DNA from: Marsupella aquatica
Lineage: Eukaryota > Plantae > Marchantiophyta
DNA: 64,000 nt
Assembly (NCBI GenBank): GCA_973895155.1
Contig: OZ316898.1
Location: 8,729,079-8,793,078 of the forward strand
Direction: 5' to 3'
Shown: piece by piece, positions 1 through 58,609 of the stretch
Layout of the letters: each line of letters begins with the position of its first letter
How positions within the stretch are numbered: position 1 is the first letter of the stretch
Position numbers and translations under genes: made by a program
The notes under the pieces: generated by a model
What the model saw: only the letters and a program-made list of their open reading frames with translations
Database searches by the model: none
What the model was told of the DNA's origin: nothing

Positions 1-1365
1 ACTCCAACTATTAAGTTGAAATTATGTCAAAACTATTTGTGAAACTATCTTGCTTATGCTTTTATATACCAGTTTAAAATGCTAGTTAAGATGACATAGT
101 CAGGTCGGCACGAAATAATTCCGACCCACTTCTAGAAACTATGTTAGTAATCACATAAAGGGGTACAGTAAGTTCTACACATGCTAGACTGTGGATAAAG
201 GTCTAGAAATGAGTAAAATATATGATCTAGAACCTAATGTGTAAATCTTAATCTAGGTTTGGCTTAAAGGTATTGAATTAGATGTAGTTGAGCTAGTACT
301 TCTAAGATAAATAAATAAAATCACTAACCTGCTCCGCAATATATCTCTGCCCACCCTTGTACAAGCTAAATGGGTACCTTGGATGCCAGCATTGTAACTC
401 TTAGCACCACAGTGCTCACCAGTGCCCTTACTAAACCTTGCATTCAACCATGCGGACCTAAACAAGGCACTCGGACAGAGGAGAGTCAGTGATCGTACCA
501 ATCACTGTCTAAATGACAATGAACCAAAAAATGGATTGTGGGAGGTCTATACTCAATTTGAGGGCAAAAAGCCCACACATTACCCAACACACGAGTGGGC
601 ACCAACAGATCGGGCACGGGTGGATGAGGCACGCACCCAGCACACAAGTAGACATCGGATAGGGTGTCAGCCAATCACTCACGAGTGATAGGTGAGTTGC
701 GAGCACACACCGCTGACAGCTTGGAAGTTTAAAATTGGTAGGTGAGTCGCGAGTGGTCGTGAGTGGTCACACCATCGGTGACTCACGATCACATGCAGCG
801 AGGAGGGTCTCCATCATTGGCGCACATTGATGCCTCCGTACCCTCTCGGATCCTTGCCTCCTTGGACTCCTCGCTCGCAGGGGGTATAGGAAGGCAGGCC
901 TTGCGCTTGAGGCCTCATTTCCTTGCCTCCTTCTTGCCTCCTCTCTCGTCTCCTCACTCCTTGCCTCCCTCTTGCCTCGCTCTAGGGCTTTTGTTTTTGC
1001 CTCGCTCTTGGGATTTTTTTTCCGCCTCGCTCTAAGGCTTTTATTTCCGCCTTGCTCCCTTCCCTTTTGGGTCGCTCCCTCAATCATTGTTTGCCTGTTA
1101 GTGCCCTCTTGCAGCCTGTGGCATTCTCCATTGCTGCCACGCGTCATCTTAAATCTCACTCGCCCCTTACAATGTCTACTTCCTCCAGTTCTGAAGCTTC
1201 CACCACCTCCGCCAGTTCTCAAGAGTCATTGAACTTCAATTATAACTCTCTGTATGAATATGACCCTGAAGACCCGGATGTCCAAAAATTGGTTAACAAT
1301 GCGTTGGAGGCGTCAAAGAAAGCGCAGTTAACTTTTCCACGTAAGGCACCACCTGCTTCAACTTC

Positions 1366-2014
1366 TTGCCTCGCCCTAAGGGCGAGGCAACTTTACTTTA
1401 ATTTGGATTCAAACTTCTTATTAGGAAAATTTCTATATTCCTTTGCAGTCGCCTCGCCCCAAGGTCGAGGCGACGTCTACTTCATTCTAGATTTCTTGTT
1501 GCTCCGAAGGCATATTGGACCTTGTATCTTACATTAATAAAGGATCTTTAGCTATATTCTATTTTTTTCCTCGCTCTTGGGGCGAGGCAATGTCGTCTAC
1601 ATTCCCAAAAGTTGCCTTGCCCTTGGGGCGAGGCGATGTTATCTGCATTCCTAAATGTTGTCTGCATTCCCAGAAGTTGCCTCGCCCTTGGGGCGAGGCG
1701 ATGTCCTCTACATTCCTAAATGTTGTCTGCTTTCCCAGAAGTTGCCTCGCCCTTGGGGCGAGGTGATGTCCTCTGCATTCCTAAATGTTGTCTGCTTTCC
1801 CAGAAGTTGCCTCGCCCTTGGGGCGAGGCGATGTTGTCTGCATTCCTAAATGTTGTTTGCTTTCCCAGAAGTTGCCTCGCCCTTGGGGCGAGGCGATGTC
1901 GTCTGCATTCCTAAATAATGTTTGATTGCTTGGATGAGGTGGCAGGGCAAATTGCACTAGGAGCAAAGAAGATTTTGCAATCTTCTATTTGTCGCCTCGC
2001 CCCAAGGGCGAGGC
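1366..2014. repeat. Array of 21-bp palindromes GCCTCGCCC-NNN-GGGCGAGGC, including a 65-bp tandem unit (~5 copies, ~1590-1915)
   Basis: Copies start at ~1368, 1451, 1569 (degenerate), 1614, 1679, 1744, 1809, 1874, 1994; 65-bp period between 1614 and 1874. Confidence 0.95.
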
Positions 2015-3057
2015 ACCTTGAAAGTTTTCCACATGTCAATGTTAAAAATATGATGCTGACCATTTTGTTTTCAATGTTTCTTACCAGAAAAAAATCTTGA
2101 GAAGCCGGAGTTAAATATTATGGACGAGGATATCAAGGACTTTGTTTTCCCTGACCAAGATACTCCAGGATTTAGATGGGCACTAGAAGTTGGGGTGTCG
2201 ACGGAAGGCAGTCTCTTGATTTGTTTCAAGGGCCTCACGAGTCAATTGAATGACCGCAAGACAATTGTTACTCTAGGTCCAGTCATCCTTGTGAACACGG
2301 ACAACAACCGCAATGCAACGATTATTGTTGAGTCCAATGAGAAATCTCAGTGGATGAGACTTCTGGTGCCAATAAAACTCTACTCGACTTAATTTACTGA
2401 ATGTTGAGTGGATGGCTCGATTGGAGATAAGCGTAGCTGATATGGGATTCTTCCCAGATGGAGTAACAATTGATTAGATGTTTGAGAAGACGCGTTCTCA
2501 AATAAGTGGAGTTGACCTAGTGTTTGGATTTCTCTACGTAAAGAAGCACATGCATGACAATGCGGACAGTGTGGACCCTCCGTCTACTTGGATAGTTCAA
2601 AGGATGATTGAGAAGGCACATTTTTCATACGAGCAAGCAATCGACAAGAGTTTCATTTTTTGTCCAGAGTTTCAAGAGGCCGCGTGCCGGACGTGGATTT
2701 CAGAGATGAAGAAAAAAGAAGCAAAGCATAAGGCAAAGGAGAGAAAGAAGACAGTGGAAAGAAGTGTGCAATCAAAGACAGAAGAAACAAAAGCTTCAAG
2801 AGCCGGTTGTTCAACAAGAGAAACAATCTGGGAGTTCACGCCGTAAGAACATGGCTAAAAAAATTGAAGATGATGAGGGCCCCCAAAAAAAGCAGACAAA
2901 GAAGGCAAAGGTTGCGAAATCAAAACCAATGTCAGGGTTGACTTCAAACTTTGTCTTGCATCTAGAGGATGATATGTGTCCGACAGAAGGACCCAAAGAA
3001 GATGATGTGCTCAAAGGCCAAGAGGTTTTGCGTAATATTGAGCAGTATTATACTTTT

Positions 3058-3500
3058 GGCATCCGCAAAGTTTTTGATATTCCTGTAAAAAGTATTAATC
3101 CGCCATCGGCCGTTTTTGTATATCAAATGTTCAATCTTTTGCATGCAATGGAGATATCAAAGTCTATGATGAAAAACCCTGGACATGAACCACAAGTTGC
3201 TGATTTGATTCCGTATCGCGAGAGCACTAAACAGTTGCTTCATTATGACAACACACCTCAGGATAGGAAAGAGTTTTTGATTGGTGTGAAGAAGCATGAG
3301 ATCCAATTCCTTGCCATCAGTGGCCAGCATTCTGCAAGAGCTGCCCAATGGATCCAAGGGTGGGCCGAGACTGACGCCAAGCTGACAGATCTTGCCAACA
3401 AACTAAAGTATAGGAAAGCAAGGATCCTATCTGACCTCACTCCGAAGACAATTTTGGTTGAGCATTCAAGTTTATCGAATGCTGTCAATGATACTATGCA
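3058..3500 (+). other. ParB/Sulfiredoxin-like (DGQHR-type) domain segment
   Basis: VFDIPVKSINPP...EISKSMMKNPGHEPQV...FLAISGQHSARAAQ...RKARIL...SN follows the ParB N-domain pattern (IPIxxIxP ... LxxSIxxxG...P ... IxGxHRxxA ... N). The GQHR arginine is replaced by S. Confidence 0.5.
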
Positions 3501-3686
3501 ATTTAAGTCTTGTTTTTTAGAGACTATTGTTCATGCACAAAGGCAGTTTGAGGAGTGCGAGAAACCGCCGCGTCCAGGGATTGGGACCAATCAAAATACA
3601 GACAGGAAAAACTATCAGGTACATGTTGGAGCAACGCAAACTATTCTTGATCCGCTTTGTTTAAAGATTGTCAATGGTAGAGGTTT

Positions 3687-3869
3687 GCCTCGCCCCAAGG
3701 GCGAGGCTGCCTTTTCTTGTTTTCCTTGGTTAGAAGCAGATTAAAGCAAATGTTTGCCTCGCCCTCAGGGCGAGGCAACCTAGACTAGTCTCTCTAAGAA
3801 TAATTTCCTAGTTCCGTTTCAGTCAATTGCGGTGAGATGTAGAGGTTCGCCATGCCCTTGGGGCGAGGC
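3687..3869. repeat. Three more copies of the same 21-bp palindrome in predicted intron 2
   Basis: gcctcgccccaagggcgaggc (~3687), gcctcgccctcagggcgaggc (~3756), gccatgcccttggggcgaggc (~3849). Confidence 0.9.
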
Positions 3870-4635
3870 GGCTTAGCCTGTTTCAAACATAGGTATAAAT
3901 TTTCTAACATATGCATTGTACCCTGAAACTAATGTCAAGTCCATTGGATGTGCAGGATTGGTTTGCCCTGGCAAAGGTTACAATGGGGAAGTCAAGCCTA
4001 AAGAGCATTTATTGGTTACTTTTGAAGATGAGCTCTTTGAATTATGGCGGAACGTGTGTGAAAAATGGTTGAGTGGGAAGCTCCAAGACGGGGCTGGTGG
4101 GTATGGAGGGCCAAGACCCCCAAAATTGATCACTCCCGGTACCTTTCGATGCTTTGATGGAGAGATTAGTAGCAAACAGATAATTGAGATCTTGAAGGAC
4201 GTTGAAGAGGAGCGTGTCTTGCTGAAGAAGGATATCACCAACAAATCAGAGCTTGTCGCAATGGGAGACTTGGCCCTTACAATCAAGATAATGTCCAAAT
4301 TGAGAACAGTCATTATTGGCTATTTTGTGGAAAAGTATCGTGAGAAGTTTCCTGTTGGCACATCTTGGGAGTCTCTGGTGATATTGTTGCCTTCCTTGAA
4401 ATCTGAGCTTGAGATGACAAAATTGAGGAGAGCAGCGGGTGAGGTTTACCTCAACAATTCATTGAAGAAGAATGTGGTCAAAGAGAGTTTCCCACAAAGT
4501 CTGATGGTCAGACTAGATGGGTTGTATTGTAAAGAATTTGGTGGGATTGGTCATTCTCGCACGGAGCCTTTCTTGACATTTTTTAGTGATAATTTGATGA
4601 AGACAACCGTGCCGGAAATGCTACAAGAGCCTTTG

Positions 4636-5340
4636 CCTTTGTGTCCTCTTGCCATTGTTGACTTTAGTAGGCTCCGACAATATGTTTGGATCGATGCTAA
4701 AATTATTGCATTACTGCAATACATTGTGGATCTTCCAAGAAATCCAACAATTGTTGTTGTCATGACTGTGCATCCGGGGCCACTTGCTGCAAACATTTTG
4801 AGTGCCCTTAGGAAATTGCAACATGAAAAGGGAATGGACATCCACGTTGACTACGGGAGCTATCGACGGAGTGATACACCAGTTCCAGAGGGCTTACTTT
4901 TCAGTTGTGGTATGGAGGAGATAATCTTTGCAGGAATCACCACTGAGGAGAAATTTGATTGGAAGCAAGTGTTCAGGCCTGGATTTAATTGCCAATTTTC
5001 TTACAATTTGGCGATCGACCCTGATTTCCAAGTGGAAGACAAGACGGAGAAGCGAGATAAGAATAAGAGTAAGACAAGTAAGGAGATAGAGACTGAGTCA
5101 ACTTCGGCATTTCACATTGGAGATTTCTTACGAAAGGCTCCCATGTTTGAGATGGTGGGAAGTAGAGGTGGCTTTGTGAATATTCACGCTAAGCCAAAAT
5201 GTATGCTACAGAGTATTATTGAATTTTTTTCGGCTGAAAGGGAGACTATACTTGACTTTTTCTCGGGAGGACAGGTTATGAAGGTGTCATTGTTGTGTTT
5301 CAGAGAATGCTTTGCGTATTCAGACACTGAGGATGAATAT
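4636..5340 (+). other. Beta-class amino-methyltransferase (N6_N4_Mtase-like) fold, catalytic motif degenerate
   Basis: HAKPKCMLQSIIEFFSAERETILDFFSGG...SLLCFRECFAYS matches the HPtxKPxxLxxxLIxxxS.xGDxVLDPFxGSG...GRxxxGxE C-terminal block. Upstream CPLAIVDFSR sits where motif IV (DPPY/SPPY) is expected, and EEIIFAG matches the internal ExIxxxxK block. Confidence 0.6.
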
Positions 5341-6585
5341 GATTTCACTCAGGCATATGGAAGGGTTCTCTACGAGAAAGTTCCTTCCATAATGAGTGAC
5401 CGGATGGTCGGTTCCCAATTTGGTAGAGCCCGCGATGGGGTTTCCGAGCATGTTGGTGCCAAAGAAGGCGTAGACCAGGGCGAAGATGATATTGAGGAAG
5501 GAGAATTGGGTCACGACACATACGACAGGGTCACCCAAAATTTGGATGAACGTGGAACACAAGTGGTAGGTATTCCCTACTTTGGTGTGGGGTTGGCCGA
5601 TGTTGTGGGTCGACCTGAGGGCGACTCACCAAGAAATCTCTTTGCCGGTGTAGAGAATTGGATGCACCAATCGGACCCAGATCTTACATTGTCCACATCG
5701 GACGCACATTGGAAGGCAACCGCAGATGGTCTAGGCAATATTGACGCAGTAGAATTGGGAGAAATGTCAAACATTGCGCTTGCAAAGGAGGATGATCGTC
5801 AAGTACCTGAGACCGTTGCAAATGAAGAAGAGAAGGCAGGTGCTTCAAATCCTCCCCTGTCTCCTCTATATTGCTCATCAGAGACTAAATTGGTTTTTAC
5901 AAGTGCTTCTACAGGAAGCCCTGTAGTATTATCATTTTCACAAAATTTTGGATCCGAGATCGGCAGGACTAGATATATGAAAACAGTCCGTCCTGCAACT
6001 CATTTTATATGGAGAAATGGACCAAAGGTTGGAATGATAGAATCACTAGACGATGCTCCAAAGATAATGGCAAAATCAGATTACAAAAAACTGAACTTGA
6101 GACTGAGCCCAGTTTTTGCACCCCCATCCTTTGAAGAGCAACTTCCCAGTGGTATCAATTCTGAGATACAGAGTGTTCTAGGTGATCAAACAATAGATGA
6201 ATTTGGGCATTTTAGCATTGGAAATTATTAGCCCTTTCTTTGGTTCTTGGTATTTTAATGACAATCTAAGCTTTATCTTTGTAATAATATACATTTTTAT
6301 AGACCAAAGTTTCGTCGTAGAATCTCCTTCCTCAAAGGATTTTATTGGCATTCCCTCGAAAAGCGTTGCTGTGGAGGAAGGGTTTGACCCAGGTATACTT
6401 TGGATCTAAAAAATGGCAAGTGAATGTAATTAATGTTTTTCTAGGAGGGTCGCCCCAGGGTCGTTCCTCTCTACTTCAAATGCTATAACAAAGTTTGTTT
6501 GATTTCAAATTTTGAGAGTTTTCCTCCATAGTAATTGTTTAAACTTTGAGTCGCATTGACTAAGGGCTTATTTTAATGTTTCCAG

Positions 6586-7624
6586 AATTCACTCCAATAC
6601 TACACTCTCCGATCCGGCGAAAGCTCTTGGTTCTTGACCTTAACAAGATTTGTTGGGATTGCATTAAGACCAGAAGCTCAGGACCATGGCAAAATCAGAC
6701 AAGTTTACGTGGTGTGCACTGGGGGAGACGTGGAGGGTTTAATTTCATGTATGTGGAGCGCCCATACCTCCACAAATTTCTATATGCAGCTTTCATGGTT
6801 TTTGATGTCGCAATTTGGACCTGTGCAAGGAGGCCAAAAACAATGGACTTAATGGAGTTGATTTTCACTGAGGAGGAGCGACAGAAGTTCAAGTTTGTCT
6901 TTACTCAAGAAGATACCTTTGATAGTTGCATCCAAAGGCCAGATATAACAGATGGGAAGGCCAATTTACTTCTGAAGAATTTGCAAACCATTTGGGACCG
7001 TTTTCCAGAAAATATGATGCTTCTAATACAGTTCTTATTGATGATTCTCCATTGAAGGCATTTTTGAATTATGACGAGAATGGATTGTTTCCAAATCCAT
7101 TTACTCACACAGCTTCAAATGACACTTTTTTGCCCGAGATATTATGGCCGTATCTTTGCAAATTGAGAAAGGCTTACTGCGTTCAACATTATATCACTGT
7201 CAACAATCCAAAGTGGTCTGTTTTCAATTTATTAACAAGCAAGGAGGATCATGTTGCCATCTATGCTCGTTTGGAACAGAAGTGGGGAGATTGTCGTTGT
7301 ATCCATAAGGAGTTTGGAACCATCTTGGATGTGACTCCTGAAGAGATTCCTTGGGACGGAAAGAACGAGGTGCAACATTACCCACCACTAGAGACGTGGA
7401 CCACGGATGAGATCGAAGAAACTGCAAACGTAATACTTGGAGACAACTATTCTGGTCCTCATACACAAAATAGAAGGCATTTTATTTGGAAAGTTCTCAG
7501 AACTAGGGATCTCACCAATAAGTTTAAGAACCACCATGCGAGAGATACTTGCAACCGTGACATCCGCTATGATAAATCAGGAAGTAGACTTTCTTGTTCA
7601 AATGAGTTTTGTCTTGATCATTAG
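6586..7624 (+). pseudogene. FCP1/NIF (NLI-interacting factor) HAD phosphatase-like domain, one frameshift near 7010
   Basis: KLLVLDLNK..., YVERPYLHKFL, FDVAIWTCA, LLKNLQTIWDRF then (other frame) YDASNTVLIDDSPLKAFLN are NIF-family motifs. DLN replaces DxD. Confidence 0.75.
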
Positions 7625-8279
7625 GAGATAGGGTTGCTCTAGTGCCTACCCTGAATTGTACATTCATATTATGTCAAAGGATATGTTTTGAACATGTAGG
7701 ATAATGTAAATAATTAGGATATGCTTAGTGTGAGGCTCTCTCACTGGATTGGACAATTTAATAATTATATAGTGGGTCAATCTCATTTTGACCCTTGATT
7801 TATGACCATCTATATTTTTTAATTTATAGATGGTCTGAGTGGTATTGGCCTCTGATTTTTGGACTAAATTAAATTTACTCTAATTTTTAAATTAATAGAA
7901 TATATGATTTAAGTTATTATTAAACATTTGGGTGAAAAAAATAAAATTTGGGCGTTCAAAAGTGTATATTTGGGCTGAAAAAAATTAGCTTTTGGGAATG
8001 CTTTAATAGAAATTTGGCCTGAAAAAAAATAACTTTAGGGTTCATCTTATGGACTTTTAAAAGTACAGTTTTAATGAATGCCGCGTCCCTAACCTGGGCC
8101 TTAAATCCAGTTTAGTGCCATGGTGCGACCTCGACCACCAGTAGGGGTGAGGGTTCGGGCAAGGAGGTGTGTAGTGTCCCCGATTAGCCCTAAGTCGGGC
8201 TAAGCCGATATACTTACTGGTATAACGCTTAAGCTATTCGTACTAGTCATAGGTATCTTTTATCTTCCACCGCTGGAAT

Positions 8280-11200
8280 TGTGATGCCTAGACAGGAATC
8301 ACTCGGCCGGTTAAGTGGGTAAAGCAGGAAGGCACCCTAGGAACACCTTAGTATAGTGACAAAACAAGGAAAATATAAACAATTAGGGGCAACCATGGAA
8401 CCCGGGCAGAGGCCGGAGGTAAGGCTGAGGGTGAAAACCCGATTAGGGTTAGGGCGCGTTAAGCGTCGGCGGCTAGGAAGGATCAACGGGAAGAAGGACC
8501 GGCAGAGGAGAGGGGTAAGGAGCGCTTGCAGGAGATGGTGGCTCATTTGCGAGCACGAACTAGGCAGACGACTACGGGAGGCCAACTACTGTCAGCTGCT
8601 TAGGCAAGCACTCGGGGAGAGAGTAGATACCGACGATCGACCTAAGGAGGGTATGAGCAACGTCAATCAAGCGGCACATTTCTGGGGATGCCTGTTCGAA
8701 CGGGCAACTGAGTACATCAAGACTTACGAGGACGAGGAGTCAGAAAGGGCAGCTCGAGAACGGCAGGAGCTCGCTCGATTGTGGGAGCTGCAGAAGACGG
8801 CTTTCTTAGGAGGCGAACTCATCAAGGACGAGTTCCTATGGACGCCTACTTCCAATCAACCCGACGATCTTCTGTTTTGCAAAGACAGCGTCGTCGGCAT
8901 CCGAGAGGCCATCAAGAACTGCAACGACATACACTGGGAATTAAAGGGTAGCACGGAAAGGTGGACCCGGGCAACGGTGCTAGGAGAAACCTCCACGGCA
9001 GCAGAGATGAAGAGGAAGGGGGCCGTCAACGATGAAGCCACCCCGGCAAAAAGAACGAGGTCGGCGGCACCAAAGAAGCCAGCCGAGCAGCAGAGCAAGG
9101 GGCAGGGAGAAGCCGAAGAGGAGGAGGTCGATCCCATCAAGGCCATTCCAACCAGGGATGACACCTGGAAGGGCTGGGCGGCAACCCTACCGGTGGAGGT
9201 GCAACTACATTTTGCACGGGAGGAGGATGCATGCTTTACGGCCATGCAGACCAAGAAGTACCAAGGCTTCATGGCCGGATCCAGCTTGGAGGCCTTTGTA
9301 AGATTACCATGGCTGAAGCCGGAGGTACCGGAGTCAGACCTATTAGAATTCGTGGGGTCATGGGAACCCGAGACCAATTGCACGAGGATATATGGGAAGG
9401 ATTTCTATCTTACTCCCAAGGTGATTGCCGAAGTGTTTGGCTTGCCGATGGGCAATAAGACCAAAGTTGATACCAGGAAGACCTTGCCTGACAAGGAGTT
9501 CCGGTCGTTCCCCGGGCCATCAACGAAGAATGGCTTCTTCCGGAACACCTGCACCAACCCGCACATAGGAGAGATGATCGACTTCTTGCGGGTGACCATG
9601 CATTGTAACTTACCGAGGGCAGAGATCGGCAAGGCACAGGTCTATCTGGCAGAAAGGCCAGACCCAAGCCGGGACTACAACGGGTACCTCCTCAACCAAT
9701 TGAAGAAGATCTTAAAGGAGGAGCAGCAGGTAATCGGCATGGGGAGCGTGTCGCGGCTTGGCTATCACATGCCGCTGTTGTGCCGGTATGCCAGAGGTCA
9801 GACTTTTGCCCCGGTACTTCCCCTGCAGGTAAGGGCACCCGAGGAAACTCCAACGCCGAGGCCGTTGGCTGAGAAGCCTCAACCACCTGTTAGTCCTACG
9901 ATCGAGCAGGTGTTTAGGCCCAAGAAGGAAGACTTGCCGATGCAGCAACCAGGCATGCAGAGTCTGCTGAAACTACTGGAGAAAGAAAAGAAATCGGCAT
10001 CGGCAACAACAACGGCAACGGCAACAATGCAGGACACTACTACAGAGGTAGGCCTACACCGGCTCACAAGAGAAAACCCCTTTGCTGGAGACAAGAAGAG
10101 AATCAGGCCGGAATCCAAGCCAGGTGTTCGAATGTACGTGGGAACCTCAACCTCCAAATCTGAGGCAGAATTGCCTGAAGCTCCTACCGAGGAAGAGGAG
10201 AGGGAGAAGCCGGACGTCCAAGAGGTAGAGGAGGCAGTGGAGGACTGCAACCATGATAATTCCGGCTATGGGTCGGACCATCACGTTCCAGGAGTAAGGA
10301 CCTGTGGCCGGTTTGTCCCCACACTTCCAAGGGTAGTGCGAGGGGACCCCAACCAGCAGAGTAGCCCTGAGTCTCCCCCACCAGATGTCGCTCCCCCGAG
10401 CTTCGACGGCATAAAACAGACGGTGCAGGAATTTCAGGAGCGAATCAAGCAGGAGGAAGAGGCCGCCCTGGCTAAGGAAAAGGATTTACCAGGAGGAGAT
10501 TGGCCGGAGGACATCAGGCGGCTAGCCGAAAAAGGAAGCAAACCTCTAGCCACGATTGAAGAGATCCGCAGGACGGCGTGGGAGCAGAGGCCACGATGGG
10601 CGATGCCGATCACTTCTACTTACTCCACCTACGCTAAGAATAGAGCCATGGAGTATGGTGAGATGTGTGGGGAACTTGCGCTCGGCATCTTTGGAGAGGA
10701 GTTGGAGGTAGGACCCTTTTTTCATAGGGAGCAGTTGGAGAAGCACCAATTAGAAGAAGCGGTGGCTTTAGAGAGAAGCAAGAAGGACGAGGTCATTCGG
10801 CGGCTTAGGAGGATGGAAGCCGAGATTGAAGATCTAAGGGCGGCCAAGAAAGCCCAAGATGAACTGCGGATTAAACGACATGAGCTGAACATCATGCAGG
10901 GGCAGTTGGACGCCGCGCAGGCTGATAATCAGAATATCAAGGATAAACTGACTCAGACACAGGAAGAGTTGGCCGACACGATCAAAGAGAGGGAAAAGTG
11001 GAAGCAAGAGCTGAAGAATACAGAGGAGGCCCACATAACAGCCAACAGCCGGGCCATGGCGGAGACCCAAAGAAAGGAATGGGCATTGAAAGGGGAGCTC
11101 GAGAAAATCCGCGGAGCCCTTGAGCAGAAGGAGGTCGAGTTAGGGAAATCCTATCAAGGGATTATGGCGCTGCAGCAGGAGCTTGCGTCCCTGACGGCCA

Positions 11201-12939
11201 GCTTCAAGGCCGACCTAAGGGAGAAGGACGAGATGCTCGAACAGACTTACGCCAAGATGAACCAGATGGAGTCTGTCATCATTGCAGAGCTCGACAAGGA
11301 GCTAAGAGCAACCCAGGAGGAGAGGGCTACCTTGAAGAAGGAATTGGAGAAAGCCCACAGGGAGCAGGAGGAGGCCAAAAACGAGCTGGAGGGGGCACGT
11401 AAGGACCTGGATGAAACCCAAGAGGAGTTGGAGGAAATCACGAGGAAGATGGAGAACCTACAGCGGCGGGCCGACAACCAAACAGAGCGGCTGAAGAAAC
11501 AAGCCGCAGTATTTAAATGCTTAGCTGCAGCAGGTCCATCTCCCGTTGGGACAAACCAGTTACCAGGGGTGGTAATTGCCGAAGGACAAGCCGCGTCAAC
11601 TGCACCAGTGCCGGAAGTAAGTGGGAAGGGGAAGGGACCAGCTGCCGAGCCACCAACGAAGAAGAAGCGGAAACCTTCAGGGTCAAGGAGTAATATGACT
11701 TCACAGGCCGTGGTGATCAAGGAGGTAGACCCAGCACCGACCCCAGACAGGGTCACGGCTAAGGATCCAACTACCCTAGGGGAAGGGGAGGCCGAGGCCG
11801 AGGGAGTGGCTGAAGCCGAAGCCGTGGGAGTGGCTGAGGCCGAAGCCGTGGGTATTGCCGAGGCCGGTGTCGAGGCTGAAGCCGAAGGTGGACCCAGTCA
11901 GGCCGATGGAGAGTTGACTCGGTCAAGGGCAGGTAATCTGTCAGTAGGCGGGCCAACGGCAGTGGCTGAGGAGGAAGTGTTGGGGGCGTCCATTGAGGAT
12001 CCACCACCGGTGTCGTGACGGTGCAAGGGCGCCGTTCCTTTTAGGGAGGGCGGACGTGGAGGGAGGAGGCGTGAGTGGGCAGGGCGGGCACGGATCTCCA
12101 CGTTTAGGATTAGGATCAGAACCAGGAGCGGCCCTGACACTTAGCTTAGTGGGATTGCGGTTCCACTGGTAGGAGCAACACTTGTGCTCCTGCCTTGCTG
12201 TACATAGGTAGATTCGGGCAAGTAGATTACTGTCAGGTAGATTAGGCTTACGATGCAAAGAATGGCGGATCCACTACCAGGATAAGTACCTGGGCAGCGG
12301 GGAGCTCAGGGCCTCTTCTTTAGCAAGTTTTTAGTTTGCACCAGCCGGGCTGGGATCAAGTAGTACGAGAAGCTCTCGGTTAGTCATACAGTGACCCTTG
12401 TGTATATTCATGTTTCCTCATGCCTAAGAGCTGAATAGAGTTGGCCTCACGGCTTAGTTCGCAGAACTTGTGTATGAGATGTACTGTTTGTATGGCAAGT
12501 GCATGGTATGACTCAGTCAGAATGAGTCATTTTGCTATTTGTGTGTCGCATTAACTTGTGTGAAGAGTGCCCACATCAACAGAAGGAAGGAAAGTAAGCA
12601 GGGGAGTGATAGTTGGATGTGTCGAGCTGAGAGAGGTCTTAGCGGCTTAACCAAGCCTATTGGGGATCATTCCGGCGGCGGAATCCAAACATACCTAACA
12701 AGACGGAGGGGAAGACAGGGGAAGACAAGGGAAGGCCTATATTAGGCCGGCTACGTATCTCATGACCCGATGAAGGATCTGTCCAGTATATGTGTGTAAA
12801 ATGTTAATAGTAGTAGTAGAAGGTTAGCAGCGTCCCATGCCGCTAAGCCGCGGAAACGGCCTCGCCAAGCACGAAACCTGTGGGAATCGGCTTGAGCTGG
12901 GGGGTTTCTTGGGTTTAGGGAGCCATGGGACGCACCACA
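8280..12939 (+). repeat. 5' LTR (4,660 bp)
   Basis: Starts TGTGATGCC, ends CGCACCACA; about 17 substitutions seen by eye versus the 3' LTR. Confidence 0.95.
8395..12018 (+). CDS. LTR-encoded ~1,207-aa protein (5' LTR copy): Arg-rich N-terminus, plant-retrotransposon accessory-ORF-like domain, long coiled coil, acidic repeat tail
   Basis: Open frame 8356-12018, first ATG 8395. LLEFVGSW...RIYGKDFYLTPKVIAEVFGLP resembles the Athila env-like/Transposase_32-type motif (by eye). Heptad-rich region ~10700-11510, PTKKKRKP NLS-like motif, EAEAVGV repeats. Confidence 0.8.
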   Translation: MEPGQRPEVRLRVKTRLGLGRVKRRRLGRINGKKDRQRRGVRSACRRWWLICEHELGRRLREANYCQLLRQALGERVDTDDRPKEGMSNVNQAAHFWGCLFERATEYIKTYEDEESERAARERQELARLWELQKTAFLGGELIKDEFLWTPTSNQPDDLLFCKDSVVGIREAIKNCNDIHWELKGSTERWTRATVLGETSTAAEMKRKGAVNDEATPAKRTRSAAPKKPAEQQSKGQGEAEEEEVDPIKAIPTRDDTWKGWAATLPVEVQLHFAREEDACFTAMQTKKYQGFMAGSSLEAFVRLPWLKPEVPESDLLEFVGSWEPETNCTRIYGKDFYLTPKVIAEVFGLPMGNKTKVDTRKTLPDKEFRSFPGPSTKNGFFRNTCTNPHIGEMIDFLRVTMHCNLPRAEIGKAQVYLAERPDPSRDYNGYLLNQLKKILKEEQQVIGMGSVSRLGYHMPLLCRYARGQTFAPVLPLQVRAPEETPTPRPLAEKPQPPVSPTIEQVFRPKKEDLPMQQPGMQSLLKLLEKEKKSASATTTATATMQDTTTEVGLHRLTRENPFAGDKKRIRPESKPGVRMYVGTSTSKSEAELPEAPTEEEEREKPDVQEVEEAVEDCNHDNSGYGSDHHVPGVRTCGRFVPTLPRVVRGDPNQQSSPESPPPDVAPPSFDGIKQTVQEFQERIKQEEEAALAKEKDLPGGDWPEDIRRLAEKGSKPLATIEEIRRTAWEQRPRWAMPITSTYSTYAKNRAMEYGEMCGELALGIFGEELEVGPFFHREQLEKHQLEEAVALERSKKDEVIRRLRRMEAEIEDLRAAKKAQDELRIKRHELNIMQGQLDAAQADNQNIKDKLTQTQEELADTIKEREKWKQELKNTEEAHITANSRAMAETQRKEWALKGELEKIRGALEQKEVELGKSYQGIMALQQELASLTASFKADLREKDEMLEQTYAKMNQMESVIIAELDKELRATQEERATLKKELEKAHREQEEAKNELEGARKDLDETQEELEEITRKMENLQRRADNQTERLKKQAAVFKCLAAAGPSPVGTNQLPGVVIAEGQAASTAPVPEVSGKGKGPAAEPPTKKKRKPSGSRSNMTSQAVVIKEVDPAPTPDRVTAKDPTTLGEGEAEAEGVAEAEAVGVAEAEAVGIAEAGVEAEAEGGPSQADGELTRSRAGNLSVGGPTAVAEEEVLGASIEDPPPVS

Positions 12940-12943
12940 TTTT

Positions 12944-12960
12944 TGGCGCTAGATGGAGGG
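12944..12960 (+). promoter_or_regulatory. Putative primer binding site
   Basis: TGGCGCTAGATGGAGGG, 4 nt after the 5' LTR CA. The cognate tRNA could not be assigned by eye. Confidence 0.7.
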
Positions 12961-13008
12961 GGCATTTCTTAAGCCGTGAGATATGAAGTTAGAACGGAAG
13001 CGTAGGTA

Positions 13009-14979
13009 ATGACTGACCTTACGCCGAGGGAAGAAAGAGTGATTCAACGGGAGAGAGCTCGACTGCAGCAGCTGGCCGGGTGGCATGATACACAGCAACT
13101 GAGAGGGGCAGAAAGAGCTGGTAGCTCCGAAACTGGAAGTGGCATCGAAGAAGACATACCAGAGGAAGAGTCGGTAAGGAGAAGTGAGTCTCCAACCGAC
13201 ATGGGGGAACCAGAGGCACGGCAAGACGAGAGGCCAGGGACCAGATTGAGCCAGCGGTCGCGCATACATTACAAAGCATTTCATGGGAGAGGAGATGAGG
13301 ATCCGGACGAATGGTTGGATGATTTCGAGGGAACCGCTGCAGCAAATGGAGAATCGGCCATCAAGATGCAGATTCTTCCCGGCCTGTTCAAGGGTGAGGC
13401 TAGGCCTTGGTACAGAGCATTAGATGTGGAAGATCAAGCCATCTGGGATATCTTCAAAACACTCTTTGTTAAGGAGTTTCGACCCATTGGAACTTCAGAA
13501 CTAGCAGTGCTGAAGTTGGGACAACTTCGGTTCAAGGAGAACAAATCCTTCAGGAAGTTCTTGCAACGCTTTCAGAAACTGGTAAGACGTACAAAGACCA
13601 ATGCATCTGAAGGTATGCAACTTCAATGGTTGGTGAATGCTTTGCCACAGAAGATGAGTTTTGCAATTAGGAAGGAGAACCCGGAGACTTTAGCCGAAGC
13701 AATTAAGGATATTCAATTATACATTAATGCAGATATCACAAGCCGGAAGAAACAGCTTAAGCCTGAGAGTTCCTCATCAGAGGAGGGATCACCCCATAAG
13801 AAAAAAGATAAGAAGAAGAAACATTCCAAGAAGTCTAGAAGTGATAAGTCAAGCTCGGATAGTGGGAGTAGCAAGAGTGAGTCATCTTCTAGTTCTGAAG
13901 AAGAAAAAACTAGGAAAAGGAAGGGCAGAAGGAGAGGGAAGACGAAAGTCAAGATGGAGGCTAAGCCACCAGATAACATCGTAGCCCTTACCGAGCAACT
14001 TAAGGCTATCATTGCAGAGGTAAAACCAAAGAAGGTAGTACAGGAGGATAGCTCTGTATGGTGTGCCTTATGTTATAAAACCGGACACCATAAAGATGCG
14101 TGTCCTAAGCTTAATACTAATCATGTTCGGCATGTGGCCGAGATCAGACCATGTCAGGGAGAAGTAGAGTACTTTTTGGGAGATGCCGCTGATAGTGTTT
14201 TCGGCATCAGTGAGACTGGAGCACGAGACCTATCCAACAGACCTGCATCTCTGTGGTCAGGGTTAAGGAACAATCCAGGAGAGATGTATCCTCGGATTAT
14301 TCAGAACCCGTCAGTACCTCCTAGGCCGAATGTGCAAAGATTTGCGGCGTGCTATAATTGTGGTCAACCTGGCCATTTTGCTAGAGAATGCCCGAATGCA
14401 CGCAAACAGGGTGATGGACAACCAGCTCAGCTATGTATGGGATGCCGACAGGAAGGTCATATGCTAGGGCAATGTCCTACTTGGTTGGCAGGCCTGGCCG
14501 CAAATCATAAGCTTTTGCCGATCAAGATCTTACCGCCAGGTACTACCCCCGGAGGAGTTCAAATCAACCACATCGAACTAGGATGGCAAGAGGATGCCGA
14601 GGCAGAGTTCGTACCATCTGATGATGAGGCCGAAGCCCTATCAACCTTCTCAAAGGAGGATTTAGATCATGATTGCTACCGGGTCTCTACTCGATCTACC
14701 AGAAGGAAGGAAAGGTGGGATGGGCTGGCCAAAAATAAAGGGAAGGTTACGGAGGAAAGGATCGACTCTTCGTCAACATCAACAGAAGGAGAAGGGAGGG
14801 CTCCGGCAATACAGGTAAGCCATGAGCCCACCAGTGAAACCAATCCTTCACAAGATAGCGACTTCAATCGAGATCATCCTAAGTTGTTCTACCCCTCTGT
14901 TACGGCTAGTGTTAAGGAACAACTAAGAGAATTAGAAACCCTGGAGAATACCGAAGCCATTGCCAAGGATGTAAAATGA
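13009..14979 (+). CDS. gag: Gag (retrotransposon gag domain + three CCHC zinc knuckles)
   Basis: FHGRGDEDPDEWLDDF...KGEARPWY...FVKEF capsid-like block; CALCYKTGHHKDAC, CYNCGQPGHFAREC, CMGCRQEGHMLGQC. Ends at a TGA in frame with the protease segment. Confidence 0.92.
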   Translation: MTDLTPREERVIQRERARLQQLAGWHDTQQLRGAERAGSSETGSGIEEDIPEEESVRRSESPTDMGEPEARQDERPGTRLSQRSRIHYKAFHGRGDEDPDEWLDDFEGTAAANGESAIKMQILPGLFKGEARPWYRALDVEDQAIWDIFKTLFVKEFRPIGTSELAVLKLGQLRFKENKSFRKFLQRFQKLVRRTKTNASEGMQLQWLVNALPQKMSFAIRKENPETLAEAIKDIQLYINADITSRKKQLKPESSSSEEGSPHKKKDKKKKHSKKSRSDKSSSDSGSSKSESSSSSEEEKTRKRKGRRRGKTKVKMEAKPPDNIVALTEQLKAIIAEVKPKKVVQEDSSVWCALCYKTGHHKDACPKLNTNHVRHVAEIRPCQGEVEYFLGDAADSVFGISETGARDLSNRPASLWSGLRNNPGEMYPRIIQNPSVPPRPNVQRFAACYNCGQPGHFARECPNARKQGDGQPAQLCMGCRQEGHMLGQCPTWLAGLAANHKLLPIKILPPGTTPGGVQINHIELGWQEDAEAEFVPSDDEAEALSTFSKEDLDHDCYRVSTRSTRRKERWDGLAKNKGKVTEERIDSSSTSTEGEGRAPAIQVSHEPTSETNPSQDSDFNRDHPKLFYPSVTASVKEQLRELETLENTEAIAKDVK

Positions 14980-15999
14980 GCAAAAGCATTGTTTGCTTCG
15001 GAAGACCCAACAGCTGTGGAGACTAGCGTGGCAAAACTGGCCGAATCCAAGACGGAAACACCACCAGAAGAGAAGCCGATTGTTCCCTATGACCTGGCTA
15101 AAGATGTACTAGAATCTAGAGTCTCGGCAACAGTAGGTCAACTATTGAAAAATAGCCCGTACTTCCGGAAGCAATTAAGGAAGGCTATTCTCAGCAAGCC
15201 GAGATTACCCAAGGTAGCAACCAGATCCGACGTACTAATGATAGAAGAAGATCAAGGAGCCCCAACATTACCATTAATGATTCAAGGAGAATTATTACTA
15301 CGGGTACCCATCGATGGAGGATCAGGGGTATGTATTATGATTGATTCAACAGCAAAAGGGTGGGGTCTAACACCGGAGATGACTGGAAGAGTGTTGAACA
15401 TGGCCAATGGATATCAGGTCATTCCGACGGGAGTGTTAACCGGCATCAAGACAGAGATAGGAGGTATCTTCTTTAGCATTAACTATGTAGTAATGAAGCC
15501 GGTAAATCCTACGTCATTCCGGCTATTGATTGGTAGGCCATGGCTGTACCTAGCCGAGGTAATAGAAGATTGGGGTAAAAAGCAGTTCACTTTCGGGACC
15601 CCCTCTATCACGGTATCCTGGGACACTAAGGATGACCGTAGGAAAAGCATAAGGGAAGTAGATGGGTACGATAGTGGACTGGAGTCAGCCGATGAAGTAC
15701 GTTGGTTAGAATGCCTCACTAACCTAACCGAAGAAGGTGTCTTTGGACCAGAGGTACCCCCCAGCGGATTATGGCAAGAACCAATGGAAGGTGACTTGGA
15801 AGAAGAAGACGAAGAGGTCGAGGACTGCTTTACAATAGAATCCACCTTTTTAGCTGCAATTCCGGAGGAAGTAAAGGATGTAGACCAATTGGATGAAACG
15901 GCTAAGTGGGGAGCAGTAGCAGGGACAGTGGATTTTCTGCAGGCGTTGTGGCAGAGCCGACGGGGTCCACAACGCCATCGATCATCGGCAAGGAATTAA
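14980..15999 (+). CDS. Aspartic protease segment (same frame as gag, after an in-frame TGA)
   Basis: VPIDGGSGVCIM active-site-like motif and LLIGRPWL. Confidence 0.85.
   Translation, partial: AKALFASEDPTAVETSVAKLAESKTETPPEEKPIVPYDLAKDVLESRVSATVGQLLKNSPYFRKQLRKAILSKPRLPKVATRSDVLMIEEDQGAPTLPLMIQGELLLRVPIDGGSGVCIMIDSTAKGWGLTPEMTGRVLNMANGYQVIPTGVLTGIKTEIGGIFFSINYVVMKPVNPTSFRLLIGRPWLYLAEVIEDWGKKQFTFGTPSITVSWDTKDDRRKSIREVDGYDSGLESADEVRWLECLTNLTEEGVFGPEVPPSGLWQEPMEGDLEEEDEEVEDCFTIESTFLAAIPEEVKDVDQLDETAKWGAVAGTVDFLQALWQSRRGPQRHRSSARN
15930..15989 (+). promoter_or_regulatory. Candidate -1 programmed ribosomal frameshift signal (slippery heptamer + H-type pseudoknot)
   Basis: G_GAT_TTT at 15930-15936 in the protease frame, 5-nt spacer, perfect 10-bp stem 15942-15951/15967-15976; loop GCCGA (15956-15960) complementary to TCGGC (15985-15989). 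The RT ORF is in the -1 frame. Confidence 0.7.
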
Positions 16000-18900
16000 A
16001 TACCAAGGGATCGGCATACAAGCCGTTTACGAGGGCAGAACAAATTGAGGCCCTATTAGAAGCCGAGAGAGCACAGCGGCCTAACTCTCAGGAGCAAGAG
16101 GTGGATGAGATGGACAGACACGATCTAGAGCCAAGGCAGGAAGGGGAGCCGACCACTAATTCAAAACCAAATAGACCGGTAAGGGGACAATCTATGGACA
16201 CCAAGGAAGGGACCGACTCGGCTAGTCCAGCCGAGATCCCAGTTTATGGAGGTATGAGATTAGAGAGACTGGAAGCCGAACTGGACCCGAATTTGAAGAA
16301 GCAGATTAATATGATCCAAGCACGGCAATATCGGAAGCTCGACTTAGGAGAGGGAAGAGAACTGAACTTAGGGAGAAACCTAGCACCTGAGCTCGAGAAA
16401 GAGATCAGTGACTTATTGATTGAATTTCAGGATGTGTTTGCATGGAGTCACCAAGATCTAAAGGGAGTAGATCCAACACTAGGGGAACATCGAATTGATC
16501 TCATGTTAGGAGCCAAATTATTTCGACAACCAATTCGAAGGATGAACCCGAAGTATTCCCTGCTGGTCAAAACAGAAATCGACAAACTAGTGGAAGCTGG
16601 ATTCATCACTCCAGTCCTGCATTCAGACTGGGTGTCTCCAATTGTGATAGTTCCCAAGAAAGCTGGACCCGATGGTAAACCCAAGATCCGGGTTTGTCAG
16701 GATTACAGGAAGCTGAATGAAGCAACATTAAAAGACCATTTTCCTTTACCGTTTACTGATATGGTACTAGACATGGTAGCCAGTCATGAACTATATTCAT
16801 TCATGGATGGATACTCTGGTTATAACCAAATCAGGATTCGGCAGGAAGACCAAATCAAGACGGCCTTCATCACGGAATGGGGGATCTATGTCTTCAATCG
16901 TATGCCGTTTGGACTCTGCAACGCACCAGCTATGTTCCAACGATTAATGGTGAACATTTTTCATGATTACTTGAGAAAGTTCATGGAAATCTTCATTGAT
17001 GACTTTGCAGTATTCGGGAAGGCATCGAAACATGCTAAATACCTCAGGAAAACCTTCATGAGATGTAGAGAGGTGGGTCTCAAGTTACACCCCGATAAAT
17101 GTTTTTTTTGCAGTAACCGAGGGGGTGCTACTAGGTCACAAGGTATCAAGGAAGGGCATTGAGATTGACAAAGGTAAGCTAGCAGTATGGCTAGATATCA
17201 TGCAACCTAAGAACATAAAGGATGTAAGATCCTTCTTGGGATGCATTGGTTACTATCGCCGGTTCATCAAGGATTTTGCCAAGCTGGCTTTACCATTAAC
17301 CAATATGCTCAAGGCAGGAGCAGACTTCGAACCCACACCCGAACGAGTCACAGCGGTGGTAGAATTGAAGCAGATGTTAGTAGAGGCCCCAGTCATGATA
17401 GCACCGGACTGGAACAAAGATTTTCATGTTTTTGTAGATGTCTCGGGCTTCTGTATTGGCTCAGTACTAAGTCAGTTGGATGAGAAAGGAAGGGACCATC
17501 CCATATACTTCGCAAGCCGTCAGCTTGCCGATGCCAAACGGAACTACTCTACCACGGAAAGAGAAGCATTAGGAGTCATTTATTCTTGTAAAAAGTTTAG
17601 GCATTATTTACTAGGGTACAAGGTAATCTTTCATACTGATCATGAAAGTTTGAAGTACCTAGTCAATAAGCCGGACCTTACAGGCAGAGTAGCAAGATGG
17701 ATTTTGCTATTACAGGAGTTTGACTATGAGCTGAGGATCAAGCCGGGAAAGTTACATGCCAATGCCGACTTCTTTTCAAGGATCACAGGTAAACCTGCCA
17801 CGGATTGCATCGATGATCGATTCCCCGACGAGGAGCTATTCGTTGTGGAGATAGCTGGTACATGGTACCCTGAGATTTTACAATTTCTCAGCACTTCCAG
17901 ATTACAGCCAGGATTAAGCCGAGAGCAAGCCGCAGTCTTTGTGCGAAAGGTCAGACAGTATCAGTGCATTAAAGGCATACTGCACAAGCATGGAATCAAC
18001 GGCACGATTCAAAGGTGTTTGGAAAAGAGAGAGGTAAAACGAGTCCTACGGGCCATGCATGGAGAGGAGGCCGGAGGACATTTTGCCCCAGTAACCACGT
18101 CTAAGAAGATATTAAATGCCGGTTACTGGTGGCCCACCTTGCACAAAGATGTCTATCAGTTTATCAAACAATGCGATCCTTGTCAACGAGCGGGAGGACC
18201 AAGGGCGTCCACCAGGCATCCACTGCACCCTATTCTACCTCTGGCACCATTCGAGAAGTGGGGTATTGATTACATTGGACCTCTGAAACCACTGACCCAC
18301 CCTCGACGGAACAAGTACATAATCCTGGCTACGGATTATGCAACTAAATGGGTAGAGGCCAGACCAACAACGAAGGATGATGCAATTACTACGGCTAGAT
18401 TCATGTATGAGCAGATCTTCACCAGGTATGGAGCACCCCTAGAATTAGTTAGTGATAGAGGAACCCATTTTTTGAATGATATAATTAGTCGTTTAAATGA
18501 GCAGTATTTAGTTAAACATAGGCCTACTACTCCCTACCATCCAAAGGCAAACGGGTTGACAGAACGAGCAAACGGAATCATAGGAAAGATATTGAACAAG
18601 ACAGTAGCTCAGAACAAACTCGATTGGGATGATAAATTGTTTGCTGCTGTTTTTGCTTACAATCTTGCCTATAAATCCACTACCGGTCATACACCCTTCT
18701 TCTTAACCTTTGGACAAGAAGCCCTGGTACCCATGCAACTTGAGATACCGACATTTCAAGTTACAATTGAGGAAAGAGCCTCAGCGGAGGAGAGCCTAAA
18801 GGAGCGAGAATATAGGTTAGAAGCTTTAGAGGAAGCGAGAATGATTTCAGCCGAGAGAGTAGAATATAGACAGAATATCATGAAGCAGCAGTATGATAAA

Positions 18901-19173
18901 AGGTTAAAAGTAGTTAGTATTCATACCGGTGATCTTGTGCTACTTTATGACAGTAGGTATAGTAGGTTTCCAGGAAAGCTTTACACTCACTGGTTAGGAC
19001 CCTTTAGAGTAACCATGATGTTCCCCAATGGCTCCGTACAATTGGCCAACATTACGGGAGAGGTATATCCAGTTCGCATCCATTATGACCGCCTCAAGAA
19101 ATACTATATGGACGAAGATGAAGTTGTTCGTGAGGACGCTTCACAATTAAGTGGGGAGCTATGTGATGCCTAG
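15930..19173 (+). CDS. pol: Pol: reverse transcriptase, RNase H, integrase (one frameshift in T8 run 17102-17109)
   Basis: RVCQDYRKLN, MDGYSGYNQI, MPFGLCNAPA, FIDDF (RT); VDVSGFCIGSVL, RNYSTTEREAL, TDH (RH); H-H-C-C, GIDY...SDRG...NGLTERAN, GPF (INT). Removing one T restores PDKCFFAVTEGVLLGH. The stop codon lies inside the 3' LTR. Confidence 0.93.
19149..19161 (+). promoter_or_regulatory. Polypurine tract
   Basis: AAGTGGGGAGCTA immediately before the 3' LTR TG, inside the integrase reading frame. Confidence 0.7.
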
Positions 19174-23821: not shown

Positions 23822-24609
23822 GGAATCCTCCCTCAGTTAGTGACTCGGACTAACTCCCGGCTTGGGGCTTTTCAAGCCATCGACGCGAAAGAACTTTGTG
23901 ACATACAATGGGTGGCAATCCCTACCATTAGTCCACACCCGGTACGTCCCTTAAAATGGTGCCTTTGCCCAGACAAAGCATACTCACCACACCAGTTACT
24001 TGCAGAAACATTAGAGGGAAAAGACTACATTTACTTAGCAAAGCATCAGTTTACATGGTTGATTCGACTTCAAAGGGGGTCAGCAGGCCCAATGGCAGTC
24101 GATGCCCAGTCTCTACGAGGCCCCGCCTCGCACTTGCCCAACAAGCTCGACTCTGGCTCTCACTCCTTAGTGCGCTCTGACCCTGCTCAGGCCGGGACTC
24201 CCCGTGCCTCACCTATCTTTTGCCGAGATAACTAAGCCTTCTCCCCCTTCCATAGCGGAAGGGGAAGCCTAAATACTACAGTTTGCGGAAGAGAACCGGA
24301 GGATACTACCTTTCGGGATACTACCTACTGCCTAACTACCTTGACTACTGGTCGTGCCGCACTGACCGGTTGACCGTCGACGACAAGGGTGCCAACCGGG
24401 ATGGCAGCGGCCAAGCCTTTTGACAAAAATCTAGTCCATTGATGAACTCCATCCTTTGTTGGCTGATCCTAACTGATCCGGCCCTAATTCTTCCTACTGC
24501 CGCTAATCGGTGCCTAATGACAGTCATTCTGTCGTTGCACCTAACCGAAAGATGTCGTTGTCTTAACTGCCTCGCGTGGCGCCTGCTTCCACCCTTCGCT
24601 AACCACCCC

Positions 24610-36679: not shown

Positions 36680-36812
36680 GGGCATGATCCACAGAAGACG
36701 AGCTGCATTTATCATCTCACTCCTGCCCAACAAGCCTTTCTGCAATTCAGCCATTGGGCATGATCCACAAAAGACGAGCTGCATTTATCATTTCACTTCT
36801 GCCCAACAAGCC
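36680..36812. repeat. Two ~57-bp direct repeats
   Basis: gggcatgatccaca.aagacgagctgcatttatcat.tcact.ctgcccaacaagcc at ~36680 and ~36757. Confidence 0.85.
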
Positions 36813-58558: not shown

Positions 58559-58609
58559 CTATAGATGTCTCATTAATCCCTCATTGTGGGATTAATGAGA
58601 CATCTATAG
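58559..58609. repeat. Perfect 22-bp inverted repeat with 7-nt loop
   Basis: ctatagatgtctcattaatccc-tcattgt-gggattaatgagacatctatag. Confidence 0.95.

Follow-up and report, generated by a model that had tools for sequence, protein, structure and literature searches.

Architecture of the ParB-like and methylase-like gene

We analysed a stretch of 64,000 nucleotides from the liverwort Marsupella aquatica (assembly GCA_973895155.1, contig OZ316898.1, forward strand positions 8,729,079 to 8,793,078), referred to below as the window. At its left edge lies a region in which three domain signals follow one another on the forward strand, in the order ParB-like, methylase-like and NIF/FCP1-like. A preliminary description of the window had placed all three in a single spliced gene derived from a transposable element or a virus. 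The analysis points to a different arrangement, in which a decayed, repeat-borne gene joins the first two domains and the NIF/FCP1-like frame is probably a separate gene.

The stop-to-stop reading frames of the region comprise 2710–3744, which has no Pfam match, 3877–6231, which has a weak match to PF01555, and 6564–7055 and 6926–7624, which match NIF. Alignment of homologues to the window by tblastn gave pieces at 2090–2386 (frame 2), 2394–2708 (frame 3) and 2806–3621 (frame 1), followed after a gap by pieces at 3953–4039 (frame 2) and 4006–6216 (frame 1). The first three pieces form a single open frame in the homologues P0008 and P0009. Two gene models from the liverwort Calypogeia fissa (P0002 and P0011) run across the junction between the segments termed exon A and exon B here; the ParB-like and methylase-like domains therefore belong to the same protein. 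Together with profiles and fold searches, these bridging models bear out the fusion of a ParB-like to a beta-class methylase-like domain that the preliminary description had proposed.

Comparison with the homologues thus supports one gene with one confirmed intron, at 3619–3955, which the earlier gene model had missed. The splice chain of that model (1340/2088, 6303–6392 and 6586) is in phase and has plausible signals, but finds no support among the homologues. The confirmed intron is of the GT..AG type, in phase 0 on the forward strand, and contains three palindromes (at 3687, 3756 and 3849). It is structurally variable among copies of the repeat that carries the gene: in contigs of two of the four runs compared with the window (X3 and X5), 84 bases (3624–3709) are replaced by 6 other letters, and several contigs diverge from the window at 3736. 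The joints seen in DNA contigs were also compared with the proposed introns; all are DNA variants and none coincides with any of these introns.

Exon A (2120–3618, forward strand), mapped by tblastn with P0008/P0009 and by three-frame translation, encodes an N-terminal domain without known family, a lysine-rich linker and the ParB-like domain (3004–3486). The Met codon at 2120 could be the start of the protein. A putative exon 1 had been proposed further upstream on the same strand, at 1172–1340, starting with an ATG (1172) and followed by a strong GTAAGG donor (1341). Its phase fits an acceptor at 2087/2088, and none of the homologues covers it. Exon B (3956–6231, forward strand) was mapped by tblastn, alignment and three-frame translation, and encodes a helical middle, the methylase-like domain, an acidic linker and a conserved C-terminal domain (approximately 5836–6207), ending at a stop codon at 6229–6231. 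Profiles, a structural model and fold search place the beta-class amino-methyltransferase-like core at 4633–5373, with the motifs DFSR (4660–4671, at the motif IV position), VNIHAKP (5176–5196, motif X-like) and DFFSGGQV (5254–5277, a motif I variant), all on the forward strand. The ParB-like and methylase-like domains lie approximately 230 residues apart and, as estimated from the matched spans, the complete protein would have roughly 1,250 residues.

Further conserved domains are found at both ends of the protein family's sequence. The N-terminal one comprises approximately 200 residues (window 2120–2700), and the C-terminal one approximately 125 residues (window 5836–6207) with the consensus AGAS...FCSS..KLV...LGDxxIDE(F/Y)G. 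Neither has a match in Pfam, NCBIfam or PDB sequences.

The ParB-like domain and the palindromes

The assignment of a ParB-like domain, also made in the preliminary description, is supported by a fold search with an AlphaFold model of 3004–3486, which has a mean predicted local distance difference test score (pLDDT) of 74.6. The top Foldseek matches in the PDB were Noc (7ol9, E 9.8e-4), ParB (6sdk, 7bnr and 7bm8), KorB (8qa9), PadC and sulfiredoxin (1yzs), with probabilities of 0.9–1.0 and E-values of 1e-3 to 2e-2. A search of the viral structure library BFVD returned mostly ParB-like proteins, including those of Sylvanvirus, Orpheovirus and Fadolivirus. On the basis of this model we accept that the domain has a predicted ParB/sulfiredoxin (Srx) fold. 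By sequence, it is not placed in any curated ParB family: the sole related Pfam match is a weak one to DndB (PF14072, E 0.031), seen in one of the eight homologues of this part found by sequence search.

The motif AISGQHSA (3313–3336) is invariant in all nine sequences. GQHSA is followed by R, K or E and then by AA. The CTP-binding box of ParB proteins, by comparison, is an arginine-rich GERRxRAA; the family has no box of this type, and its motif is closer to the DGQHR of DndB-like proteins than to the ParB box.

A 21-bp palindrome, GCCTCGCCC-NNN-GGGCGAGGC, was found 12 times in the window, compared to 0.01 matches expected, with up to 3 mismatches allowed. All 12 matches fall either within a cluster of nine upstream of exon A (1368–2014, forward strand) or within the intron (three, at 3687–3869), and nowhere else in the window. 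Part of the upstream cluster is a 65-bp tandem repeat of 5 copies (1589–1916), identified with Tandem Repeats Finder, as was a 25-bp tandem repeat of 3.4 copies at 974–1057 that consists of degenerate left arms, or half-sites, of the palindrome (both on the forward strand). The arms of the palindromes are conserved and the loops vary. By analogy with ParB, the palindromes are likely targets of the ParB-like domain, which may bind them as ParB binds parS and would thereby tether the protein to its own element.

A possible, if doubtful, alternative is that the palindromes are subterminal sites of an unseen transposase, or small foldback repeats in the non-coding parts of the element. Arrays of subterminal repeats to which the transposase binds are a classic feature of CACTA, hAT and Mutator transposons. 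Consistent with either origin, the motifs are confined to non-coding DNA, and copies of the repeat vary in structure near 3624–3709 and 3736. Three of the palindromes are, however, intronic and lie more than 1.6 kb from the upstream cluster, which argues against this alternative, as does the occurrence of inverted-repeat arrays with ParB-like accessory genes described for red-algal Plavaka elements (bioRxiv 10.1101/2025.02.11.637652). The combination of conserved arms and variable loops also speaks against it.

The methylase-like domain and the NIF/FCP1-like frame

The Pfam profile PF01555 (N6_N4_Mtase) matches the window copy at E 0.03, with 14.7 bits against a cut-off of 26.7. It was found at E<=1e-3 in all five homologues scanned, of which only P0007 (29.2 bits) scored above the cut-off. 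The seven homologues of the methylase-like part (E 1e-163 to 3e-73) include two named Calypogeia fissa. A profile of the family matched M.RsrI (E 2.7e-5), and hhalign against two phage methylases gave a probability of 94% (E 1.2e-7) over 46 columns covering motifs X-I. The AlphaFold model of the domain had 40 PDB matches at E<=1e-3, led by 1g60, 6pbd, 1boo and 1nw8; the best matching enzymes were M.MboIIA, CcrM, M.PvuII, M.RsrI and M1.HpyAVI, and the rotifer N4-cytosine methyltransferase N4CMT (8s9o) was also among the matches (E 1.9e-4). The order of secondary structure elements in the model fits the permuted beta-class topology, with strand 4 first and motifs X-I near the C-terminus. The domain is hence modelled as having a beta-class amino-methyltransferase-like fold.

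This fold, the permuted order of motifs and the sequence of motifs X-I are shared with M.RsrI, M.MboIIA, CcrM and M.PvuII, and the ParB domain precedes the methylase as in phage fusions of ParB-N and N6_N4_Mtase. In contrast to the bacterial and phage enzymes, the window family has neither DPPY nor SPPY, a motif I that is one residue shorter (DFFSG-GQV compared to DPFAGSGTT), a spacing of approximately 230 residues between the domains, an intron and a eukaryotic setting.

Motifs X and I form the most conserved part of the ParB/methylase-like family, with DFFSGGQV and VN..KP invariant in all eight sequences. Where the first core strand ends, six of the seven sequences that cover this place have D-F-(S/G/T)-R and the seventh has DLLR; (D/S/N)PP(Y/F/W) is found there in none of them. 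Going by its topological place in the model, DFSR would be the equivalent of motif IV. In amino-methyltransferases, the proline pair and aromatic residue of motif IV position the target amino group. As judged from the alignments, GQHS (9/9) and DF(S/G/T)R (6/7) are traits of the whole family and not decay of the window copy. Two of the three altered active-site motifs listed in the preliminary description are thereby upheld, together with the loss of (D/S)PP(Y/F), but the third (DLN, in the NIF/FCP1-like frame) is readable in the window copy only. The non-canonical motifs suggest a binding or pseudo-enzyme role, in agreement with that description. The methylase-like domain would bind S-adenosylmethionine (SAM) as well as DNA, and probably performs no standard transfer to N6-adenine (N6A) or N4-cytosine (N4C): SAM binding is expected to be retained because motifs X and I are kept, and ordinary transfer is expected to be lost because there is no (D/S)PP(Y/F) loop.

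That the protein instead works as a DNA methyltransferase whose motif IV is unconventional, methylating its own element (N6A or N4C) after ParB-like targeting, appears unlikely. Such an enzyme would account for the strong conservation of motifs X and I (with DFFSGGQV in 8/8 sequences and VN..KP kept), the whole-domain fold does match that of active enzymes, and the algal relatives in print have been predicted to be 4mC or 6mA enzymes (PMC12477816). Set against this, (D/S/N)PP(Y/F/W) occurs in no member of the family, the corresponding place being D-F-x-R in 6/7 and DLLR in 1/7.

The NIF/FCP1-like reading frame occupies 6576–7624 on the forward strand, with its own ATG at 6576, and was delimited by Pfam, alignment to UBLCP1 and the open reading frame list; the domain itself lies at 6621–7174 on the same strand according to Pfam. 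PF03031 (NIF) matches in two frames with 34.3 and 23.5 bits (cut-off 21.8), over profile positions 1–106 and 94–156 of 160. As the two matches cover successive parts of the profile, they represent one NIF domain split by a frame shift, the break lying near 7008. The frame shares the context of strand 1 (KLLVLD) and the LIDDSP motif, which is kept at 7034–7051, with UBLCP1 (PDB 3shq), the closest solved NIF/FCP1-SCP phosphatase. At the place of DxDx(T/V), the window has DLNK (6636–6647; DLNKI, 6636–6650), which aligns to DIDYT of UBLCP1. The N of DLNKI could be a G-to-A change specific to the window copy, whose product would lack the second catalytic aspartate. Besides this substitution, the frame differs from UBLCP1 and FCP1 in having no UBL or BRCT partner and in lying inside a repeat. 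The nearest Atlas cluster consists of stand-alone plant NIF proteins of 176 residues (score 0.95); an exact look-up of the NIF-like frames gave no match, and none of the papers listed by a literature search was relevant to NIF domains carried by transposons.

Several observations separate this frame from the gene upstream. The methylase-like frame stops at 6229–6231, seven residues past the conserved tail LGDxxIDE(F/Y)G. The IDE(F/Y)G tail is present in six of the seven homologues, which end 4–14 residues later, with P0004 ending earlier. None of the seven has NIF-like sequence downstream of the methylase-like part, and the homologue search found no protein longer than 1373 residues, which is weak evidence. 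The ATG at 6576 sits 19 codons before the strand-1 motif. The NIF/FCP1-like frame is therefore probably a gene in its own right, located downstream in the same repeat unit, and not a third domain added by one transcript as had been proposed; its product would act separately.

The three-domain fusion of ParB-like, methylase-like and NIF parts put forward in the preliminary description would be spliced from a donor at 6182 through a mini-exon at 6303–6392 to an acceptor at 6585/6586, and has only a small chance of being correct. The splice signals are good and their phases compatible, and the mini-exon is an open stretch that lacks its own ATG. Moreover, the NIF-like frame begins 345 bases downstream on the same strand and in the same repeat unit, all four runs have contigs that cover it, and X5, the most distant run, has one of 612 bases that bridges 5820–6432. 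But no GT donor lies between 6183 and the stop at 6231 in the window, and the donor at 6182 is the only link to the mini-exon; splicing from it would skip the tail that is conserved in 6/7 homologues and followed there by a stop. The fusion is also at odds with the homologues (0/7 with NIF-like sequence, including the two liverwort gene models) and, weakly, with the lack of longer proteins in the search. Finally, an open stretch of 30 codons with in-phase splice sites is not rare by chance in AT-rich DNA.

Decay, spread and origin of the repeat

The window copy is dead. Mapping by tblastn and three-frame translation located four frame breaks, near 2387–2394, 2708–2806, 4023–4039 and 7008, as well as a TAG stop at 2475–2477, in keeping with the several frameshifts reported previously. 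Compared with the window, contigs of other copies show small insertions or deletions at 2389, 2779, 4023 and 7008 and a substituted base at 2475, the exact places where the window frame breaks or stops. In 67 of the 117 differences from contigs of run X1 over window positions 1–8079, the window has A/T where the contigs have G/C. This bias is consistent with deamination of methylated cytosines in a silenced copy.

The X1 contigs over the gene have a depth of 474–480 and are 1–2% different from the window. A single-copy X1 contig of 7091 bases has a depth of 12.8 and no differences from the window, which identifies X1 as a run of the same organism or of one nearly identical to it. The repeat is found at approximately 30–40 times single-copy depth, i.e. 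in tens of copies, a rough figure given that summed contig depth is not copy number. In related organisms, hundreds to thousands of contigs are 90–99% alike to the repeat. In X5, the coding parts have a higher summed depth than 841–1960; this was not used, since contig depth cannot rank parts of a gene. A scan of metagenomes yielded one contig of 1802 bases with no flanks and with a stop codon, which was left out of the alignments.

The repeat extends past the left end of the window. On the right, the copy is truncated by another repeat between 8079 and 8080, where contigs of all four runs continue otherwise; the common continuation of the other copies beyond 8079 is absent from the window. 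The remainder of the window is plant nuclear DNA with a leucine-rich repeat (LRR) receptor kinase, a Rieske/PaO oxygenase, a VID27-like gene and Ty3/gypsy sequence. The truncating sequence belongs to a second high-copy repeat (8080–8279 and 23827–28700), which is host to the insertion of a young Ty3/gypsy long terminal repeat (LTR) retrotransposon at 8280–23821 with a 5-bp target duplication (GGAAT). The LTRs of the latter are unusually long (4660 bp; 8280–12939 and 19162–23821, with approximately 17 differences) and reach contig depths of tens of thousands in X1, compared to approximately 13 for single-copy sequence. Each contains an open frame of 1225 codons (8341–12018 and 19223–22900), the C-terminal half of which is coiled-coil and which belongs to no Pfam family. 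A minus-strand frame of 702 codons in the second repeat (24904–27012) has 28% identity to the 1225-codon frame over 270 residues (E 4e-21), and the second repeat is probably the LTR, or part of the LTR, of a related element in reverse orientation. Single-copy host genes are located at 34693–46292 and 55800–62893, and comprise a BRCT-domain frame, the Rieske/PaO oxygenase, the LRR receptor kinase (minus strand), a CDK5RAP3-like frame and the VID27-like gene.

As the ParB/methylase-like gene is carried by a repeat, it is probably derived from a mobile element. Hence, of the two sources considered in the preliminary description, a transposable element agrees with the repeat-borne setting, but a virus does not find support, there being no relatives among viral contigs. 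Because neither a transposase nor the ends of an element are seen in the window, the term transposon rests on copy number and on precedent.

The closest precedent by description is the Ectocarpus transposon Sola1-1_Ec32, for which a 1104-residue accessory protein with ParB-like and N4C/N6A methylase parts is reported (PMC12477816). According to its authors, accessory proteins of this type may constitute a new class in transposons (PMC12477816). Like the window family, the Sola1-1_Ec32 protein is eukaryotic, repeat-borne and of similar size, and joins a ParB-like to a prokaryote-type methylase domain; it is proposed to bind and modify its own element. It differs in belonging to a brown alga and in lying opposite a known Sola1 transposase, whereas the window family is found in a land plant with no transposase visible. 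The window family in turn is without the (D/S)PP(Y/F) loop, has extra conserved domains at the N- and C-termini and has a NIF-like neighbour, and the two are likened by description, not by sequence. In the Plavaka elements of red algae, the cargo protein PAG2 combines a PF01555 methylase with SET, and PAG3 combines a ParB-like domain with a 2-oxoglutarate (2OG) oxygenase, with tandem inverted-repeat arrays adjoining PAG3 (bioRxiv 10.1101/2025.02.11.637652). Here too, the same two prokaryote-type modules appear as transposon cargo with repeat arrays beside the ParB-like gene (compare the 12 palindromes in the window), but the modules reside on two proteins with SET and oxygenase partners, while in the window family they are fused in one. 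In its section 8 and its passages on ParB, a survey of eukaryotic adenine methylases lists no land-plant clade with the ParB-like and methylase architecture (PMC4738411), and the literature searched contained no paper on ParB-like and methylase-like genes in liverworts or other bryophytes.

We consider it probable, with somewhat better than even confidence, that 2120–6231 is a dead copy of a multi-copy repeat gene for a ParB/Srx-fold and methylase-like protein, likely a transposon accessory factor that would bind the 21-bp palindromes, and that the NIF-like frame at 6576–7624 is a separate gene. Under this explanation, the window gene is a land-plant variant of the published class of transposon cargo. 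The protein may mark or shield the DNA of its element; a published analogy, to which the red-algal preprint refers (10.1101/2025.02.11.637652), is the anti-silencing protein that VANDAL transposons encode.

A number of points weigh against this explanation. The fold search with the ParB-like model gave modest E-values and TM-scores of 0.3–0.35; in Pfam, no ParB family profile matches the window frame or the eight homologues, and the nine sequences had no relevant match in NCBIfam, nor did a PDB profile search for the ParB-like part. Confidence in the methylase-like model is low (pLDDT 59.6), and alignment with the two phage methylases by MAFFT and hhalign paired motifs X-I only, so that DPPY did not fall opposite DFSR. 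No carrier transposase, terminal repeat or target-site duplication was found in the 64-kb window. The palindromes could just as well be sites for a transposase or insertions of small foldback repeats. Given good, in-phase splice signals at 6303–6392 and 6586 around a mini-exon that lacks an ATG, a fused isoform could yet be produced via the donor at 6182. Assembly errors are, in principle, another possible cause of the frame breaks; the contigs compared come from other copies.

A bolder proposal, and at present a long shot, is that the locus holds a self-targeting chromatin kit of a land-plant transposon. The ParB-like domain would read the palindromes of the element and be joined to a SAM-binding methylase-like domain whose active site has been rebuilt, and a NIF/FCP1 phosphatase, of the type acting on the C-terminal domain of RNA polymerase II, would be present alongside or as a spliced isoform, together reprogramming the transcription or silencing of the element. 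Elements of this kind may also have carried bacterial-type amino-methyltransferases, for instance the N4C enzymes of Marchantia sperm, into the genomes of liverworts.

It is improbable that the window gene is not cargo but a decayed paralogue of a host gene family, e.g. of relatives of the Marchantia sperm N4C methyltransferases MpDN4MT1a and MpDN4MT1b. The closest named homologues are indeed annotated liverwort proteins, and Marchantia has domesticated bacterial-type N4C methylases in MpDN4MT1a/b (bioRxiv 10.1101/2021.02.12.428880). These enzymes and the rotifer N4CMT resemble the window family in being a bacterial-type amino-methyltransferase fold in a eukaryote; unlike it, they are active enzymes encoded by single or duplicated host genes. 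A host family is difficult to reconcile with a contig depth approximately 30–40 times that of single-copy sequence, with thousands of contigs 90–99% alike in related organisms, with decay of the window copy that shows a transition bias, and with the absence of the catalytic motif from the window family. A ParB domain is, furthermore, not mentioned in the passages of the Marchantia paper that were searched (10.1101/2021.02.12.428880). An endogenous fragment of a giant virus or other viral insertion is very improbable: phages commonly have ParB-like and methylase genes, giant viruses have them too, and BFVD matches include Sylvanvirus, Orpheovirus and Fadolivirus proteins, but neither profile found a relative in 2.9 million viral contigs, and the gene, which has an intron of spliceosomal type, is present in tens of copies.

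Transposons with proteins that recognise and modify their own DNA are rare and, besides VANDAL, have been described mainly in algae (VANDAL as cited in 10.1101/2025.02.11.637652). The window family would extend the class of ParB-like and methylase-like cargo to land plants. Loss of the catalytic loop across the family with retention of the cofactor motifs points to a binding or reader role, or to new chemistry. The dead copy in the window has its value as a pointer to this family and not as a working gene, and the association of the gene with a defined 21-bp palindrome would provide a directly testable protein-DNA pair.

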